NCBI GenBank assembly: GCA_035549295.1
Contig: DASZRG010000039.1
Location: forward strand, 31 to 64,030
DNA length: 64,000 nt
From: Patescibacteria group bacterium
GTDB lineage: Bacteria; Patescibacteriota; Microgenomatia; Levybacterales; GWA1-39-11
Direction: 5' to 3'
The notes under the pieces were generated by a model. The model saw only the letters and a program-made list of their open reading frames with translations, had not been told where the DNA came from and searched no databases. How positions within the stretch are numbered: position 1 is the stretch's first letter; each line of letters begins with the position of its first letter. Positions 1 through 50,872 of the stretch are shown here, in pieces. The position numbers and the translations under genes were made by a program.

Positions 1-469
1 ATAAGCGCAAGTTTGATGAGTACTATATAGTAACTTGTAAGTGATTCGGAGTATGGGTCATTTCTCGTTTTCCTATATGTTGGAATAAAAGATATAACTT
101 CAGAAATTGTAACAATAGCTAGCGAAATAACAGGAAAATTTCGGACTAACACATACGTTAAAACTCCAATTACTGAAATGCTTAGACAAATCTTGTCCAG
201 GAATACAATATCTTTTGTCCCGTATCGAAAACAATAAAACAGAATAACAATATCAATTAAGTCTCCTATAAATGTTGGAATTGCACCAACTCCAGCGCCA
301 CCAATTAGCTGGATATACGCAACTATTGAAGTTACAAGCACAATACTTACCCATGTATACAAATGTGGCCTATTTTTACCTCGGAACATATCAACCAAAT
401 AAGGAATGTATGCAACAACTGCAATCATCGAAGCAACACTAGAAGCAATAACCTTCAAATCAACATTCA
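1..469 (-). CDS. hypothetical polytopic membrane protein, truncated by the window edge
   Basis: Reverse-complement translation from the ATG at 469..467 reads MNVDLKVIASSVASMIAVVAYIPYLVDMFRGKNRPHLYTWVSIVLVTSIVAYIQLIGGAGVG..., which is strongly hydrophobic. It is absent from the ORF track because it runs off the window start. Confidence 0.4.
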
Positions 470-744
470 TACAACAATTATAGTGTAAACCCATCCACAA
501 TATTAACTCGTTAACCTACATTTTTATTATTTAAAGTATCTTTTGTTTAGGGTCTACTGTCTACCGACTACTGTAGACAATAAGCCAATATGCTTAATAC
601 TTTCTACTTAATACTAAATACTCGCTTATTCCATATTCACAATTATTTAGCTCGTGATACCCTTGATACCCTTGATACTTCTGATACCTTTCCCCTAACC
701 CCTTGTATCCTAATCGCATAAGTATGCTATGCTATTAACTACCT

Positions 745-2735: not shown

Positions 2736-4097
2736 CTACTCCGTAGTTTCATTCTGTGGCTGATCAATTGTCCTATTTCTTCTTGCTCGATCCATAAGCC
2801 TTATGGCCATTTTGCCGTCGGGTAAAATTCCAAGCCAGATCTGCTCTATTGATGTTACTTCACGGCCTTTTACATACATCTTAACAGATCCACATATGTC
2901 TGTTGCACCTCTCATTGAAACCATCTCTACCTTCATTTCAACTTCATCTCCTGGGAAAATAAATCCGCCTTTTCCACCCCCTGTAAAATCAACCTCTCCA
3001 CTCAGGCCATCAAGCGTTGCAGCAGCGCCTACGGCGTCTGGCTCAAGTCCCATGAATAGAAGGCCGACTGCTTGCCCTGCCATTTCAATACGCTCATGTG
3101 CAGGTACCAGTTTCCCACCATATTCTTCTTTAAAATGGCCTACTGCATCCTCGTCACGTGCTGTATACCAGGCTGTTCCAGACATTCTGTCAGCTGACGA
3201 CTCCCACCTATCAACCATGACCCTATTTCTGACTGAGTTATCGTACATCTCAAGCTTTGCCTCAATTTGTGCTCTATCAAGGATTACTGGACCAATATGC
3301 TCAGGCGGAAGAGGTTCCGCATTGTCACCTCCAGCAAAATAGACCTCTCCAGAATCGTGAGCTGAAAGCAAAAACTCGCGAAGACTGTCCCCGGTCTCCT
3401 TAGGAGTAGGCGATTTACCCTCTCGCTCCTCCATTGCCTTCACACCATCTTTAGAAATGTGAGACATTACGGAATAAGCCCCAGTTTCAGATACAAGGCG
3501 GGTTGAAAAAACGCTTAGGCGGTTTCCTTTTTTAGCCATTTCGTCACGCTTGGCGAGAAGTGAATCCTCTCCTGCTCTTTTTGACCTTGCAATTTCTCGG
3601 TAGAAAGGCGGAATTCGGACTGCACCATATCCATGTGCCCAATTACTTGTTACTAAGACCGTATCAGAATCTGAGTTCATGTGAGGAAGAGCCTCGTCCA
3701 GCAAGTCTACCTGGGCATAATTATTAATAACGTCTGCATATCCGTAGTCCTTATCTTTTTCGAAACCACCAGCCGCATTCAGAACCAAAACATCTATTCC
3801 CTGTCCCAAATCTGTGGCGGCATTAACGAGTGCTCTTCTCCCGTCCGCAGTAGTTATATCTGCCCGAACGGATACAAACTTCCCACCCATTGCCTCAATC
3901 TCTGTTCCAAGCGTATTTTGACGCTTTTCACTACCTTCACTCACATAACAACCAACAACAGTTGCGCCGGCTTCAGCAAGAGACAATGCAGTACCACGGC
4001 CTATTCCACGAGAGGTTCCTGTTATTACTGCTACTTTACCCGCAAGAGGTTTTATTTCTTTTATATCTGGGTTGGGCGTTAATTCAGATTCTGACAT
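2736..4097 (-). CDS. SDR-family Rossmann-fold oxidoreductase domain fused to a C-terminal hotdog (MaoC-like)-type domain
   Basis: The N-terminal segment carries GKVAVITGTSRGIGRG and LVLNAAGG (TGxxxGxG and NAG motifs) and a Y-x6-K-like FYREIARSK. The C-terminal segment reads GGGKGGFIFPGDEVEMKVEMV...GSVKMYVKGREV, which looks hotdog-like. GC is clearly higher than the surrounding DNA. Confidence 0.5.
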   Translation of the reverse strand: MSESELTPNPDIKEIKPLAGKVAVITGTSRGIGRGTALSLAEAGATVVGCYVSEGSEKRQNTLGTEIEAMGGKFVSVRADITTADGRRALVNAATDLGQGIDVLVLNAAGGFEKDKDYGYADVINNYAQVDLLDEALPHMNSDSDTVLVTSNWAHGYGAVRIPPFYREIARSKRAGEDSLLAKRDEMAKKGNRLSVFSTRLVSETGAYSVMSHISKDGVKAMEEREGKSPTPKETGDSLREFLLSAHDSGEVYFAGGDNAEPLPPEHIGPVILDRAQIEAKLEMYDNSVRNRVMVDRWESSADRMSGTAWYTARDEDAVGHFKEEYGGKLVPAHERIEMAGQAVGLLFMGLEPDAVGAAATLDGLSGEVDFTGGGKGGFIFPGDEVEMKVEMVSMRGATDICGSVKMYVKGREVTSIEQIWLGILPDGKMAIRLMDRARRNRTIDQPQNETTE

Positions 4098-45312: not shown

Positions 45313-46260
45313 ATGAAAAAATTAGTGCTGCTCATTTTGCTAATTATTACAGCAGCAGGCCTTGTATATTTTCAAAACCCCAAACCTAAAAACTTTAATA
45401 TAACTTCACCTCTCCCCGACCTTCTAACACACGCTTTTCCAAAAGTGTTGGGTGAAGAAAATATTTGGAAACCAAGGGATATAACGATCGCATCAAGCAT
45501 AAAACAGCCTGATTTGACTGCCAAATCTGCAGCCGCATATGACATTACCACAAACCAATACCTATATAAAAAAGATGTCGACACAAAAAGACCAATAGCC
45601 TCACTTACCAAGATTATGACGGCTATTATTGCACTCGAAAACGAAGACATAAATAAAGAATTTACTGTCAGTCATGCAGCAGCAAATATTGGCGAAGATT
45701 CAATGGGCTTGTCGGAAGGCGAAAAATTTGCTCTAAGCGACCTACTTTACGGTCTCGTTCTCAATTCAGGAAATGATGCAGCTGAAACAATTGCACAAGA
45801 TTCACAATTTGGCCGCGCCAACTTTGTATATCTCATGAACAAGAAGGCAGAAGATCTAGCGCTTTCTGGAACCCATTTCACCAACCCCACCGGTCTTCAG
45901 GGGGATGGCAATCAATACAGTACTATTTCAGATTTGTTGTCGATAACTCACTATGCACTCCAAAATTCTACTTTTGCAAAAGTTGCAGCAACATATGAAT
46001 ATGATATTCCAGAGTCGTCCACTCACAAGGCATATACTCTGTATAATGAGACAAACCTACTTACAACCTACCCAGGCGTTAAAGGTGTTAAAACAGGGTT
46101 TACTGACGAGGCTGGCATGTGTCTTGTGACATATCTTGAATATGACGGGCATAAGATCATAGCAATCGTCTTAAACGCAGAAAACAGACGCGAAGAAATG
46201 AAAGAACTCCTCGACTATTCACTCAAAACAGAAGGCATCACCCCACCACCGCACGATTAG
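45313..46260 (+). CDS. D-alanyl-D-alanine carboxypeptidase (PBP5/S11 family)
   Basis: Signal/TM N-terminus. SxxK is in ASLTKIMTAI, SxN in LNSGND and KTG in VKGVKTGFT. Confidence 0.75.
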   Translation: MKKLVLLILLIITAAGLVYFQNPKPKNFNITSPLPDLLTHAFPKVLGEENIWKPRDITIASSIKQPDLTAKSAAAYDITTNQYLYKKDVDTKRPIASLTKIMTAIIALENEDINKEFTVSHAAANIGEDSMGLSEGEKFALSDLLYGLVLNSGNDAAETIAQDSQFGRANFVYLMNKKAEDLALSGTHFTNPTGLQGDGNQYSTISDLLSITHYALQNSTFAKVAATYEYDIPESSTHKAYTLYNETNLLTTYPGVKGVKTGFTDEAGMCLVTYLEYDGHKIIAIVLNAENRREEMKELLDYSLKTEGITPPPHD

Positions 46261-46300: not shown

Positions 46301-47791
46301 GTGGGAATCCAGAGTAAATTTTTCCAATATCTAACTTTGAATCAGAATTGGTATTGCTGTAAAATCGCACTTATGGCAACTTATGAATCCGAAACTCAGG
46401 TAACCGCCGAACGAACAGCCGAACAAGACGTAAAGTTTAATGTTGTTCGTAATCTAAAATTTGGCAGTTTACTTCCACTCCCCAACGGGAAACCATTCGG
46501 TGGGGAGACTGTCACTGCATACAGATATCAACAAGGCGCCAGAACGGAATACCTCATCGTTTTTGGTCCACTTAGTGGGTATCAATTATACAAGAGACTA
46601 AATGACGTAGCACGCGTAAAAGACGAGTTTGATGGTGTAAGAGCCGATTTCAGTGGAATTCTTTCAAGTGCAGAACTTTGGAAGCGACACAATGCTGACA
46701 TGCCAGAAGCGTGGGCAGAATATGCGTCCTCAATTCAGCGTCAAAATGATGTAATGCAAACATTCAAACCTAGCGGGCTGCCTATTATACCCCACCAAGC
46801 ATATATGCAATTGGAGAGAGCCAGGAACTCTTACTCAGCACTTGCGGAACACCAATCACAAGCTGACAACACAGTCGATAAAGCTTACAACCAAGCAACT
46901 AGAATGCTTTCTGGAGATATGCCTGTAGATATTCAATTTATCTCCCACTTTCTTCAAATTAGTAGCAGCGACATTGGAATGCGAGGGGTTAGTAGGGGGG
47001 ATTTTACCAGATTAGTAAATGGGTTTGGATCACCTAAAATTAGAGAACAATTCCTTAATCGTTTCAAGAAGGTAGTTGCAGAAAAGTCGAGGGACGAGAA
47101 TGGTGATTTGGATAAAACTAAATTAAGAAGTTACGCAGAACAAACGACCACAACACCCAAAGGCCTAATTAGGAAAAAAATTGACGACAAATATTTCTTG
47201 TATCCTACACACCTCGAACCATATTTAAATTCCTGGCATGTTCAGCAAATATCGGGTGTACAACTTAATGAGAATGGGGAATTCGTTATTCCACCTGATG
47301 CCAAAGAGAAAGTAGATGCAGAAATCAAAAGATTAGACGGAGATATTTTAAGAAAGCGTTCAATAATACCCATAATTCGCTTTGCAGAAACAGATCAGGG
47401 AGTTTCGGGTTTTGTGTTTAGTCATTCTGAAGCAAGTACGCCCCTGCCTTCATCTGTTCTAAAAGACATTGATAGCTCTACTGCCCGAGAAGCTTTGGAT
47501 ACAGAAGAATTTCACGAAGGCTGGCTATCAGGCGCAGTAGGAAATTTACTACTCATAGGTAGTCATCCCAAAATTAAGGAAATTAATGACTCTTGGAGCA
47601 GAATTTGGCAGAGAACTATGATTAGACGATCAGAAGCGGCTGGGCTTGATTCTACACTCCACGAACCACTGAATATTAATGGGCCTGTTCAAGTAGGTCT
47701 TATAGCAACCGTTGCACTCGCAAGATATCCCCAACACTTCAACCACTTTAAAGAAGCAGTCAAGAATCAGTTTGGAAGAATTAGAGATTAG
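46301..47791 (+). CDS. large hypothetical protein with no recognisable domain
   Basis: 496-aa ORF. The real start may be the internal Met near 46373 (MATYESE). It ends 53 nt from the 3' end of the tRNA-Leu. Confidence 0.4.
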   Translation: MGIQSKFFQYLTLNQNWYCCKIALMATYESETQVTAERTAEQDVKFNVVRNLKFGSLLPLPNGKPFGGETVTAYRYQQGARTEYLIVFGPLSGYQLYKRLNDVARVKDEFDGVRADFSGILSSAELWKRHNADMPEAWAEYASSIQRQNDVMQTFKPSGLPIIPHQAYMQLERARNSYSALAEHQSQADNTVDKAYNQATRMLSGDMPVDIQFISHFLQISSSDIGMRGVSRGDFTRLVNGFGSPKIREQFLNRFKKVVAEKSRDENGDLDKTKLRSYAEQTTTTPKGLIRKKIDDKYFLYPTHLEPYLNSWHVQQISGVQLNENGEFVIPPDAKEKVDAEIKRLDGDILRKRSIIPIIRFAETDQGVSGFVFSHSEASTPLPSSVLKDIDSSTAREALDTEEFHEGWLSGAVGNLLLIGSHPKIKEINDSWSRIWQRTMIRRSEAAGLDSTLHEPLNINGPVQVGLIATVALARYPQHFNHFKEAVKNQFGRIRD

Positions 47792-47843
47792 CTCGTGATA
47801 CACTTGGTACCCTTGATACTCGTGATGCTTTTGACTAACTCGG

Positions 47844-47958
47844 TGCCTGGGGTGGGACTCGAACCCGCATGACGTAAGTCACACGCTCTTAAGGCGTGCG
47901 TGTATACCATTCCACCACTGGCCCAATTCTGCTGGATGGATTATTCCACCACCCAGGC
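47844..47958 (-). tRNA. tRNA-Leu (anticodon TAA) with a ~33-bp insertion/duplication in the D-loop region (possible pseudogene)
   Basis: Hand-fold. The anticodon arm is CACGC-CUUAAGA-GCGUG. There is a variable-arm hairpin UGAC-UUAC-GUCA (type II). The T-arm is GCGGG-UUCGAGU-CCCAC with one C-A mismatch. The 3' acceptor strand is CCCAGGC+A. A perfectly matching 5' acceptor GCCUGGG-UG-GUGG-AAU exists only at 47943-47958. A degenerate duplicate (GCCAGUG-GUGG-AAU) lies at 47909-47922. Confidence 0.5.
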
Positions 47959-48011
47959 TAGTGTGTCCAAACATTTTATCTCAAAGTAGTTCGGTAGACA
48001 ATATAAAGCTT

Positions 48012-48875
48012 TTATGCCGCTGGAATTAGTATTTCAACGTCCACGGTAGACTTTGGAGCATTGGGGTTTTTGAGCATCCCGCCTTTTTTAGCAAAAAACA
48101 TAATAGCAATATTATCCTGTTGATGTTCAGAAAACTTGGGATAAATTTGCCGATTGATGCGAAGCGCGCTACTTCGCAGCGCTCCATGATGACTCCTGAC
48201 ATCGTCTTCAGAGTAGTAACCGTACACATACTTTATTAAATTAGGGTAAGGAACAATTACCCCTTCATTAAGGGAAAGTATTTTCAATAATCTACCATCT
48301 ACTGGTGCCACTTTTACCTGAGTCTGATCTTTTCTAGTAAGAACCCTCAATTCTTCGTTGTAAGTGAAATCAGGATGATAGTAAATATTATCATCTAGAT
48401 TATGCGTACTCTCCTGGAGCACGTTTAATCGTTCATCAATGAATCTGTACCCACTTTCTCTTACCGTTTCTATCGGATTTGAGTCAAATCTAACAATCTT
48501 ATCTCTAACTTTACACACTACTGTTCTAACTGTCGCGTGGTCATCTTCCAACATATTTTCACTTTCCCAAAGCGCAAATGCAATCTTTTTAATAGGTGTC
48601 ACTCTGTTTGGTCTAAGCTGTAACTCATGCAGGACCTTTGCTTCAGTTTTAGTTAAGTGAATTTTGTTTAAATGATTACCGCTTTCATCTTCGCCTTTAT
48701 ATAACTCGCTTGTATTTGAATTTGGGTTGAATTTGAAACTATAGCTGGGATAGTGCCAGGTTACATTAGGTTGTTCCGAAAGATATTTTCCCGGTGGAAT
48801 TGAATTCGGGGTATTTAAACCTCGCGGTCTCTGAATTTCCCTTATCCTAGGGACAGTTTGTAGCCGCTCACTCAT
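48012..48875 (-). CDS. putative transcriptional regulator with two tandem OmpR/PhoB-type winged-helix (trans_reg_C-like) domains and no receiver domain
   Basis: LTKTEAKVLHELQLRPNRVTPIKKIAFALWESENMLEDDHATVRTVVCKVRDKIV...IETVRESGYRFI matches the OmpR C-terminal domain. A second, weaker copy is LTRKDQTQ...LLKILSLNEGVIVPYPNLIKYVYG...ALRSSALRINRQI. Confidence 0.5.
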   Translation of the reverse strand: MSERLQTVPRIREIQRPRGLNTPNSIPPGKYLSEQPNVTWHYPSYSFKFNPNSNTSELYKGEDESGNHLNKIHLTKTEAKVLHELQLRPNRVTPIKKIAFALWESENMLEDDHATVRTVVCKVRDKIVRFDSNPIETVRESGYRFIDERLNVLQESTHNLDDNIYYHPDFTYNEELRVLTRKDQTQVKVAPVDGRLLKILSLNEGVIVPYPNLIKYVYGYYSEDDVRSHHGALRSSALRINRQIYPKFSEHQQDNIAIMFFAKKGGMLKNPNAPKSTVDVEILIPAA

Positions 48876-48946
48876 TTTAGAAGCATATTATCAAAATCTA
48901 AATTGAGTATCAATATTTTAGGCAGATACATCTGTTAAAATGGGCT

Positions 48947-50872
48947 ATGACCGATATTGTCCTATTAAAAAATGCCACCGAAGTTGGAACTTTTGGAGGC
49001 AAGGCAGTGAATCTTGCAAAACTATTGAACGCGGGACTTCCTGTACCAAACGGTTTTGCGGTTGGACTTGGCGCATTCGGACCTGATGGCAAACTGTTCG
49101 CTGGGGCTAAAGAAGAAATAAGCAAACTTACCAAAGACCAGCCTTATGCAGTTCGATCTTCTGCTACTGCTGAAGACGCTGAAAATTCTTCCTGGGCCGG
49201 CCAATTCGAAACATTCCTCAATGTAAAGCCAAGTGACTTGATTTCAAATATCGAAAAATGTCACGCATCGGCAAAAATAAGAGCTAAATCATACGCAGAT
49301 CAAAAGGGTGAGAAAGCAGTATTCCAAGTTGCCGCTGTAGTACAAGAAATGCTAAATCCTGAGTACGCTGGCGTACTATTTACCAAAGACCCTATCTCAG
49401 GCGAGAGTAAATTTGCTACTGAATATATCGAGGGTCTTGGCGAGGAATTAGTAAGTGGTCGAGCTGACCCAAAGCAAATTAGTTGGCAGAAAGACAAAAT
49501 GCCTGACGCACCTTTTGATGTCAAGCAATTGAGCGAATTGGCTAAAAAGACAGAGAAACTCTTTGGCGAGCCGCAGGATATAGAATGGGTTTGGGCGGAT
49601 AATAAAATTTGGCTAGTACAGGCTCGTCCAATTACAACAAAAGGGGGAATCAACAATGGTTATTATCTAGGTGAACCAGATGATCTTTTTTACTGGGGAC
49701 CATCCCGAGCAAAACCACTCTATATGAGCGACTACATGCAAGCAGTTGAAAATTTTCTTCTCGAGTCGTCATTTCATAAAAACTTACCCAAACCACCCAA
49801 GACACTAGTTTTATTCCATGAGGGAAAAATGGTATGGCTAAATAATGCACATGCATTTGTCGAATTTGTAGAGAAGGTCTTCGAAGCCTATGAATTAAAA
49901 AATCGAATTGAAGAGGATATAAAAGCATGGCAAAATTCCATCGAAATATTGCCAACTCTAAAAGGTGAACACTTCAAAAAAGAGCTACTAAAGGCATGGA
50001 AATTGACTTTATTTGCGGAATTTTCGCTATATGGCGCAGATAGCGTGATAACCAGACGCTTAAGTCGCTTCGATGTTGCAACTCGACAAAAAATTTTTGG
50101 GACTTTTACCATACCAGATAAACAAACATTTCTGACCAGGATTGATGAAGAGTTACTCGAGTCGAAAGATCCACAAAGCCTATCCAAGAAGTACCCATGG
50201 ATAAATGACGGTTATGATGGTGTACACGATACTGCCGAAAGTTATTTTGCAGATAGACTCAAGATTTTGCTTCAAGATAACACGAACAGCCATCTATCAA
50301 AACCAGATAAGTCGGCTCTCGAACACGAATTTTCTTTAAGCGGTGAAGAAATTAAGGTTTTGACTCTAACAAGAAGGTTAGCAGAATTTATGGATGATAG
50401 AAAGGAGTGGATGATGAAAACACGCAGATTAATAGAAGAGTTTTCGATATACATTGAGCATGGATGGATGCTTGACGACGGTAAAGCATCAAAAATAGAT
50501 GAAGCAAATACAACAGACCTGTGGCAACGCTATATAAATTTCAAAGGGTCTACAAATGCAGTTACCGGCATCGTTGCGAGCAATGGAGGACGACATTTTG
50601 TAACGGGTGAGATTGTGATCGTTTCAGGTCCGACAGATACGGTTGCAAGCGGCATGATTCTAGTCGTTCCATCTACAAGCCCAAGCTATGTCCCCCTTAT
50701 GAGGAGTGCAAAAGCACTTATCACAGACCATGGCGGCATGATGTCTCATGCGGCTATTGTCGCGCGCGAGTTCGGTCTACCATGTATTGTAGGCACAAAA
50801 CACGCAACAAAAGTCCTAAAAACAGGCGATAAAGTAGTCCTGGATCTCGTCAAAGGCGAAGTCAATAGATAA
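48947..50872 (+). CDS. PEP-utilizing enzyme (PEP synthase / rifampicin-phosphotransferase-like: N-terminal ATP-grasp PPDK_N domain + C-terminal phospho-His swivelling domain)
   Basis: N-terminal segment GGKAVNLAKLLNAGLPVPNGFAV. C-terminal segment GGRHFVTGEIVIVSG...DHGGMMSHAAIVAREFGLPCIVG. Confidence 0.75.
   Translation: MTDIVLLKNATEVGTFGGKAVNLAKLLNAGLPVPNGFAVGLGAFGPDGKLFAGAKEEISKLTKDQPYAVRSSATAEDAENSSWAGQFETFLNVKPSDLISNIEKCHASAKIRAKSYADQKGEKAVFQVAAVVQEMLNPEYAGVLFTKDPISGESKFATEYIEGLGEELVSGRADPKQISWQKDKMPDAPFDVKQLSELAKKTEKLFGEPQDIEWVWADNKIWLVQARPITTKGGINNGYYLGEPDDLFYWGPSRAKPLYMSDYMQAVENFLLESSFHKNLPKPPKTLVLFHEGKMVWLNNAHAFVEFVEKVFEAYELKNRIEEDIKAWQNSIEILPTLKGEHFKKELLKAWKLTLFAEFSLYGADSVITRRLSRFDVATRQKIFGTFTIPDKQTFLTRIDEELLESKDPQSLSKKYPWINDGYDGVHDTAESYFADRLKILLQDNTNSHLSKPDKSALEHEFSLSGEEIKVLTLTRRLAEFMDDRKEWMMKTRRLIEEFSIYIEHGWMLDDGKASKIDEANTTDLWQRYINFKGSTNAVTGIVASNGGRHFVTGEIVIVSGPTDTVASGMILVVPSTSPSYVPLMRSAKALITDHGGMMSHAAIVAREFGLPCIVGTKHATKVLKTGDKVVLDLVKGEVNR

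Follow-up and report, generated by a model that had tools for sequence, protein, structure and literature searches.

A tRNA-Leu(UAA) gene with two tandem 5′ ends in a Patescibacteria group bacterium

Within the 64,000-nt stretch of Patescibacteria DNA analyzed here (the window), a tRNA-Leu(UAA) gene on the minus strand has two tRNA-Leu starts in tandem, 18 nt apart, and only the distal one is cognate. The gene lies between mgsA and a gene for a D-Ala-D-Ala carboxypeptidase (PBP). The features of the locus are given below by window position; L numbers are our handles for the other contigs and loci compared.

45313..46260, plus strand: gene for the D-Ala-D-Ala carboxypeptidase (PBP), the syntenic anchor on the 3′ side of the tRNA gene, with 51-73% identity to its counterparts in L035, L046, and L029
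46373..47791, plus strand: open reading frame between the tRNA and PBP genes, 472 aa in the NCBI call and 496 aa from a GTG start
47844..47908, minus strand: body of tRNA-Leu, comprising the D loop and 3′ D stem, the anticodon arm, the long variable arm, and the T arm
47909..47918, minus strand: direct repeat copy 2, GTGGTGGAAT, which runs into the D loop
47918..47924, minus strand: non-cognate acceptor-like strand GGGCCAG, which does not pair with CCCAGGC and together with TGGTGGAAT forms another tRNA-Leu 5′ end
47925..47942, minus strand: 18 nt of no traced origin, AATCCATCCAGCAGAATT, with no second copy in the window at up to three mismatches
47943..47952, minus strand: direct repeat copy 1, GTGGTGGAAT
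47943..47958, minus strand: outer cognate 5′ segment, composed of GCCTGGG (47958-47952), U8 and G9, and GTGGAAT, which pairs 7/7 with CCCAGGC at 47851-47845
47973..48001, minus strand: promoter-like site TTGTCT-17-TAAAAT, 5′ of the outer cognate end (consensus scan, 9/12 matches)
48012..48875, minus strand: gene for an OmpR-type winged helix-turn-helix (wHTH) regulator (Trans_reg_C match) between mgsA and the tRNA gene, missing at this place in L035 and L046
51020..52267, minus strand: mgsA, the syntenic anchor on the 5′ side of the tRNA gene, 72-79% identical to the mgsA beside the intact tRNA-Leu(TAA) of L046 and L035

Read along the minus strand, the promoter-like site is followed by GCCTGGG-TG-GTGGAAT (47958-47943), by AATCCATCCAGCAGAATTGGGCCA (47942-47919), by GTGGTGGAAT (47918-47909), and by the remainder of the gene, GGTATACAC...CCCAGGC-A (47908-47844). 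The 10-mer GTGGTGGAAT has two exact occurrences in the 64 kb, where 0.11 are expected, and the start-to-start spacing of the two copies, 34 nt, sets the length of the insert at 34 bp, made up of 24 unique nt and the repeated GTGGTGGAAT. The duplicated segment corresponds to tRNA nucleotides 7-16 and thus to the 5′ side of the molecule. In the body, the anticodon UAA occupies 47891-47889, the 3′ strand of the acceptor stem occupies 47851-47845, and the discriminator base A73 is at 47844; CCA is not encoded. The anticodon arm, the long variable arm, the T arm, and A73 are all present, with the sole exception of a C:A mismatch in the T stem, flagged by Rfam, in which A64 (47853, minus strand) opposes C50 (47867). 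Position 64 is a G in 58 of the 59 matches from the genome collection, the only other A being that of L036, a truncated 3′ tRNA fragment; A64 and the variable arm GACUUACGUC are the private marks of the window gene. In the minimum free energy (MFE) fold, the first 10 nt of AATCCATCCAGCAGAATT form a hairpin with U8-A14 of the outer copy, and the 61-nt insert region folds no better than shuffled sequences (z = 0.13).

A second promoter-like site, TGGACA-18-AATAAT (47940-47969, minus strand), was made by the insertion; it has TG before the -10 element and 10/12 consensus matches. Transcription from this site would start within the insert and leave out the cognate 5′ strand.

As the gene stands, no contiguous cloverleaf with a 7-bp acceptor stem can be drawn. 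In the ARAGORN call, a tRNA-Leu(taa) at 47842-47922, only 5/7 positions of the acceptor stem pair (A:A and U:C are mismatched) and the D arm is poor, and the Rfam tRNA model (RF00005) scores the contiguous reading 47922-47844 at 33.9 bits, against a gathering score of 29, with three nonstandard acceptor pairs. With the same model, the four remaining tRNAs of the window reach 59-73 bits. Removal of the 34 nt in silico, and only that, restores a class II cloverleaf in ARAGORN with a 7/7 acceptor stem. The locus is therefore an annotation hazard, as ARAGORN and Rfam each still report a tRNA and start it at the wrong 5′ end.

For comparison, one genome per species was scanned for the T arm plus acceptor strand, which yielded 59 loci, three of which carry an intact tRNA-Leu(UAA): L029, L035 (Levyibacteriota), and L046 (Parcubacteria). 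These orthologues score 59.7-59.8 bits with Rfam, compared with 33.9 bits in the window. The first 16 nt of each are identical to the outer 16 nt of the window gene, and the window gene minus its 34 nt is identical to all three over the acceptor 5′ strand, the D arm, and the anticodon arm, including a 39-nt stretch containing the D arm that is identical across CPR phyla. The identity of the deletion product to the intact genes indicates that the 34-nt register is not due to chance. Relative to these genes, the structural lesions in the window are the 34-bp insertion and the G64A substitution. The first-pass annotation had taken the gene to be interrupted by a short insertion with a duplicated segment on either side, with a cognate 5′ end lying further out and a strand next to the D arm that could not pair with the 3′ acceptor strand. 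All of this holds: the relatives are intact and lack the 34 nt; deletion restores the cloverleaf; the distal end pairs 7/7 with CCCAGGC, whereas GGGCCAG does not; and ARAGORN finds no normal cloverleaf from the inner 5′ end. Its insert length of 33 bp and its position for the inner repeat, 47910-47919, are corrected to 34 bp and 47909-47918.

The position of the gene is conserved as well. Searches with the window proteins (tblastn) give the order mgsA, tRNA-Leu, PBP, methyltransferase, and h174 in L035 and the order mgsA, tRNA-Leu, and PBP in L046; in L029, tRNA-Leu adjoins a PBP fragment at the contig end. This shared mgsA - tRNA-Leu - PBP order identifies the locus as ancestral. In addition, a -35 TTG, a -10 TAAAAT, and a leader GACAC.C are common to the region upstream of the outer 5′ end in the window and the region upstream of the intact gene in L035. 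As judged from the sequences of these relatives, the gene originally began at the outer 5′ end, and the 34 nt were a later addition.

Two further observations concern the relatives themselves. The direction of the tRNA gene differs between L035 (737-818, plus strand) and L046 (1395-1476, minus strand) inside the conserved mgsA - tRNA-Leu - PBP neighborhood, which indicates that the tRNA gene was inverted or re-inserted in one of the lineages. L029 is labeled Gammaproteobacteria yet has a CPR-type tRNA and PBP, and is probably mis-binned.

The insert is also found outside the metagenome-assembled genome (MAG). A Logan contig of run SRR12170510 (L002) is identical to the window and continues unbroken from the regulator gene through the outer 5′ end and the whole insert into the inner copy. 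Logan contigs are the product of a k=31 assembly made with a different assembler (PMC12424806), and two assemblies thus contain the insert. The two that meet in the tRNA gene end exactly at the edges of the 39-nt stretch (47918-47880), which shows that the sample also contains a tRNA-Leu(UAA)-type gene whose flanks differ from those in the window, although this second core may be that of a different organism. It also leaves the join across the core ambiguous at k=31, and in this ambiguity lies the case for an assembly error or an inter-genome chimera, misjoined via a core that is common to many CPR organisms and is shared by at least one other gene in this sample; moreover, the MAG and the Logan contigs probably derive from the same reads. 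An artefact, which had been raised as an explanation at first, is nevertheless highly improbable. The insert and both repeat copies lie in one unbroken Logan contig that is continuous with the regulator gene, and the 24 unique nt, which must exist in reads, cannot be produced from a 10-nt repeat at k≥31. Ordinary reads easily span a 39-nt core. A correct join predicts the synteny that is seen across it, from mgsA at one end to PBP, methyltransferase, and h174 at the other, and we accept the join of the MAG because the ancestral gene order is kept on both sides. The continuity of L002 further indicates that no other locus in the sample shares ≥31 nt with the insert, which argues against a recent donor copy in the same genome, and it argues likewise against a common intact allele of the same locus in the sample.

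The end of the insert and the repeat together read GGGCCAG-TG-GTGGAAT, which looks like the opening 16 nt of a tRNA-Leu whose acceptor stem is not that of the window gene. When viral contigs were scanned for GGGCCAGTGGTGGAATGG, two matches emerged, one of which is the exact 5′ end of a phage tRNA-Leu(TAG) (L185, 9209-9292) that starts with GGGCCAGTGGTGGAATGG and has the 3′ strand TTGGCCC. The inner 5′ end, GGGCCAGTGGTGGAAT, is thus a genuine tRNA-Leu start that occurs in nature. The 18 nt AATCCATCCAGCAGAATT and the insert as a whole have no other copy in the window at up to three mismatches and no exact copy in the viral contigs, and nothing significant was found when the insert was compared with phage records. 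Variants of the tRNA with a 5-35-nt insert between exact flanks are absent from the JGI metagenomes, which marks the insertion as a one-off and not a conserved feature.

A plain tandem duplication, also considered in the first-pass annotation, does not account for the insert: the 24 nt resemble neither flank (8/24 matches to the upstream 24 nt, by eye) and end in the strand GGGCCAG of another tRNA-Leu. A group I intron or a member of another Rfam family was likewise rejected, as the Rfam matches are to tRNA only. The single 12/13 match to the insert in the window pairs 47597-47609 (plus strand) with 47921-47933 (minus strand), AGCAGAATTTGGC against AGCAGAATTGGGC; it is inverted, lies 311 nt away inside the 472-aa open reading frame, and is of a kind of which we estimate about 0.9 would occur by chance in 64 kb, which leaves its proximity as the one remarkable point.

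Together with the conserved ancestral locus, this anatomy leads us to favor, if only with moderate confidence, a reading in which recombination or template switching with another tRNA-Leu gene left a nonfunctional gene that is backed up elsewhere. The insert consists of the 18 nt and the 5′ end of a second, non-cognate tRNA-Leu (GGGCCAG-UG-GUGGAAU), which would have been acquired by illegitimate or homology-facilitated recombination or by a replication template switch. The partner may have been another tRNA-Leu gene or incoming DNA, with nucleation at the D-arm sequence that tRNA-Leu genes have in common. In the product, the distal GCCUGGG end retains the match to the 3′ strand and the ancestral promoter, and the proximal end is continuous with the D loop and unable to form an acceptor stem.

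Sequences of this kind were sought elsewhere. A looser scan, which required a spacing of 14-44 nt between two copies of TGGTGGAAT and GGTA directly after the second, returned at least 120 loci; the matches listed are mostly satellites and coding repeats and include seven tRNA-Leu genes preceded by the 9-mer. The viral version of the two-copy scan found only coding repeats. By our estimate, about a hundred occurrences of the 9-mer upstream of a tRNA-Leu gene are expected by chance in the collection, and only longer matches were counted. At least five metagenome contigs extend beyond the 9-mer (L094, L119, L125, L169, and L174), and each has 15-25 nt of a tRNA-Leu 5′ end and, 12-35 nt downstream of it, an intact tRNA-Leu; wherever the fragment is readable, its acceptor strand differs from that of the intact gene. 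The occurrence in five unrelated contigs indicates that non-cognate 5′ fragments beside tRNA-Leu genes are rare but recurrent, which fits recombination at the D arm. In all five, the inner gene is intact; the window shows the reverse arrangement, with the inner start mismatched to the 3′ end. Taken together, these 5′ fragments and the nested genes described below, all in unrelated contigs, point to the tRNA-Leu D arm as a recurrent recombination site.

In L119 (about 393-523, plus strand) and L169 (about 3966-4088, plus strand), a 25-nt 5′ fragment comprising the acceptor strand and the whole D arm lies 18 nt and 12 nt, respectively, upstream of an intact tRNA-Leu with a different acceptor stem, in surroundings of housekeeping genes (enolase in L169).

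The remaining three contigs show nested genes, in which a complete tRNA-Leu (TAG or CAA) bounded by 10-12-nt inverted repeats sits in the broken D loop of another tRNA-Leu gene or pseudogene: L125 (3363-3627, plus strand), L094 (about 2413-2178, minus strand), and L174 (about 10064-9930, minus strand). The flanking repeats compare with best values of 4-7 nt in nine ordinary control tRNAs; they vary from locus to locus with complementarity kept, and L094 and L125 have a GCCCCG/CGGGGC core in common. In L125, the outer 5′ fragment GCCTGGGTGGTGGAATGGTATA and the distal 3′ end ...CGAATCCTCTCCCAGGCACCA are 7/7 complementary, and in L094, 37 nt of the inner gene recur in the outer 3′ half. No integrase is obvious near the nested loci, which could be read as tRNA cassette insertions or as processing stems.

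The scan for the T arm and acceptor strand also returned 3′ fragments of tRNA-Leu that run from the anticodon loop to the 3′ end and lack the 5′ half (L006, L013, L031, L036, L042, L043, L054, and L059). Such 3′ fragments, here of the same tRNA-Leu type as the window gene, are what integrase-mediated insertion classically leaves behind, and they contrast with the 5′-side duplication in the window. In L021 and L024, too, the 5′ half is missing, but in these two the stored sequence ends at the match.

The genes that separate the tRNA from its syntenic anchors are lineage-specific additions, in keeping with the first description of the neighbors. The 472-496-aa open reading frame has no Pfam or NCBIfam match. 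The only relative of the OmpR-type wHTH regulator found by tblastn is 25% identical and lies in L029, and a word-indexed protein search found no homologues. A PEP-utilizing enzyme (PPDK_N and mobile domain, 641 aa) also lies between mgsA and the tRNA gene and together with the regulator spans 48012-50872. Compared with L035 and L046, genes have thus been gained on both sides of the tRNA, without a recognizable mobility gene. All of these lineage-specific genes are outside the conserved tRNA promoter, which argues that they were not inserted at the D arm.

This setting bears on the proposal, also made in the first-pass annotation, that the locus is the footprint of a mobile element or integrase: an element would have entered the D arm, with a target duplication or att core of 10 bp, and would later have been deleted almost completely, leaving 24 nt behind. 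Such a history would explain why foreign sequence is flanked by a 10-bp exact direct repeat, and it would suit a neighborhood that has taken up DNA, with lineage-specific genes on both sides that are absent in L035 and L046; the nested tRNA-Leu genes of L094, L125, and L174 resemble cassette insertions into the same region of the D loop. We nonetheless consider it unlikely. Inspection of the 24 nt showed no terminal inverted repeats, the window contains no second copy of them (≤3 mismatches), a second and imprecise deletion is needed, and the lineage-specific genes lie outside the promoter and not at the D arm. No integrase or transposase domain was found in the open reading frames of 36-60 kb, and no other 5′ or 3′ fragment of tRNA-Leu occurs in the 64 kb. 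The duplicated part is furthermore the 5′ side, whereas the known integrases that target tRNA genes reportedly duplicate the 3′ part (anticodon loop, T loop, or 3′ end). Two specific versions were rejected on these grounds: an att-site duplication by an integrase, as the copies are 24 nt apart, the 5′ side is duplicated, and no integrase or element lies between or beside the repeats; and an IS or MITE with target-site duplication, as there are no terminal inverted repeats and no further copies in the window or in viral contigs.

If recombination or template switching with another tRNA-Leu gene is indeed the origin of the insert, the product would be a nonfunctional or badly impaired tRNA in which decay is beginning, as suggested by C50:A64. 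On present sequence evidence, the gene is likely a pseudogene, and the T-stem C50:A64 mismatch points to relaxed selection. UUA codons are in use in the long open reading frames of the window (14.2 per 1000 codons). By established decoding rules, UUA is read only by tRNA-Leu(UAA), and no second gene for this tRNA is found in the 64-kb window; since UUA is in use, a working copy should exist somewhere, and on this reading a second tRNA-Leu(UAA) gene, beyond the window on a different contig, would decode UUA. Several observations count against this reading. The gene is unblemished except for the insert and one substitution, which implies either that the event is recent or that selection is still acting; it sits at the ancestral locus and so does not look like a spare copy; and UUA is in use with no second tRNA-Leu(UAA) in the 64 kb. 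The unbroken course of L002 through the insert, the lack of a donor for the 18 nt in the window, the viral contigs, and the phage records, and the chance that the second core of the sample is from a different organism also weigh against it.

These same facts invite the question of whether the gene works. In that case the outer 5′ strand would pair with the 3′ strand, and the 34 nt would be excised like an intron, be cut to give a two-piece tRNA joined through the acceptor stem, or be tolerated as a hairpin at 7/8 or in the D loop. The ancestral syntenic locus with its conserved promoter and the use of UUA speak for this, as do structural features: the outer 7/7 acceptor stem forms in the MFE structure, folds that are compatible with a cloverleaf and loop out the insert cost about 5 kcal/mol above the MFE, and a register resembling a bulge-helix-bulge (BHB) motif can be drawn with a 5′ cut after G6 and cuts that exactly bound the 34 nt. 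This register combines an outer helix of 5 bp with a central helix of 4 bp (GCCU/GGGC) and two bulges of 3 nt each (GGG and CAG); it has no inner helix, was found post hoc, and is equaled by 1-2% of shuffled inserts. PMC10714607, citing PMC9297842, describes the removal of insertions from rRNA by CPR bacteria, which we count in favor of a functional gene. Overall, however, a functional gene appears improbable, as it is a single instance with no conservation or covariation and no insert-bearing relatives, the BHB-like motif lacks its inner helix and has an outer helix that competes with the tRNA fold, and the T stem carries an extra mismatch. We know of no bacterial BHB endonuclease and of no natural tRNA with a 34-nt insert at 7/8 or 16/17, and nothing on short tRNA introns or BHB splicing in CPR/Patescibacteria was found in the literature. 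The stronger form, in which the insert-bearing gene is the only tRNA-Leu(UAA) gene of the cell and still yields a working tRNA, whether by excision of the 34 nt, as a tolerated hairpin, or in two pieces, is more doubtful still, and we regard it as distinctly improbable. It would be the first short, nonribozyme intervening sequence in a bacterial tRNA, and it would extend the removable insertions of CPR rRNA to tRNA, as a new kind of bacterial tRNA processing.

Should recombination or template switching with a backup gene elsewhere be correct, the locus would capture tRNA gene turnover as it happens in a streamlined CPR genome, in which an essential, ancestral tRNA was damaged by recombination at a sequence that is identical across phyla and its function presumably moved to another gene. 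It is thus most likely a curiosity of tRNA gene turnover and not a new system, and this is also how it compares with the systems that are known.

The group I intron of tRNA-Leu(UAA) in cyanobacteria and plastids interrupts the same tRNA species, but that intron is a ribozyme of more than 200 nt in the anticodon loop, whereas the insert described here measures 34 nt, lies in the D arm, and matches no Rfam intron. Archaeal BHB introns, which include D-arm introns, and split tRNAs resemble the window gene in that a short sequence interrupts the D arm and a normal tRNA results when precisely that sequence is taken out, and a BHB-like register can be drawn here. Archaeal tRNA introns carry no exon copy. 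The window gene differs further in its bacterial host, its missing inner helix, and the fact that nothing is conserved; an archaeal-type conserved intron was rejected, as the insert is absent from the relatives. The partial tRNA duplications at integrase att sites (attL/attR) of prophages and islands resemble the locus in that part of a tRNA is directly repeated next to lineage-specific genes, but in the window it is the 5′ part that is duplicated, the copies are 24 nt and not an element apart, and there is no integrase.

Two known classes come closer. Homology-facilitated illegitimate recombination and microhomology-mediated template switching join a homologous anchor, here the tRNA core, with a short homology and leave an insertion bounded by a short duplication, as is seen in the window; the likeness is limited to the outcome, as such a mechanism is only suggested for the window gene and a donor was not found in the window, the viral contigs, or the phage records. 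Disrupted tRNA genes and tRNA pseudogenes of bacteria share with the window gene a recognizable tRNA with an acceptor lesion in the contiguous reading, a low covariance score, and an extra stem mismatch. The window gene stands apart from these in that it occupies the ancestral syntenic place of an essential, single-function tRNA and in that its lesion is nonrandom: a second 5′ end has been placed in tandem with the first, and exact removal of 34 nt restores the gene.
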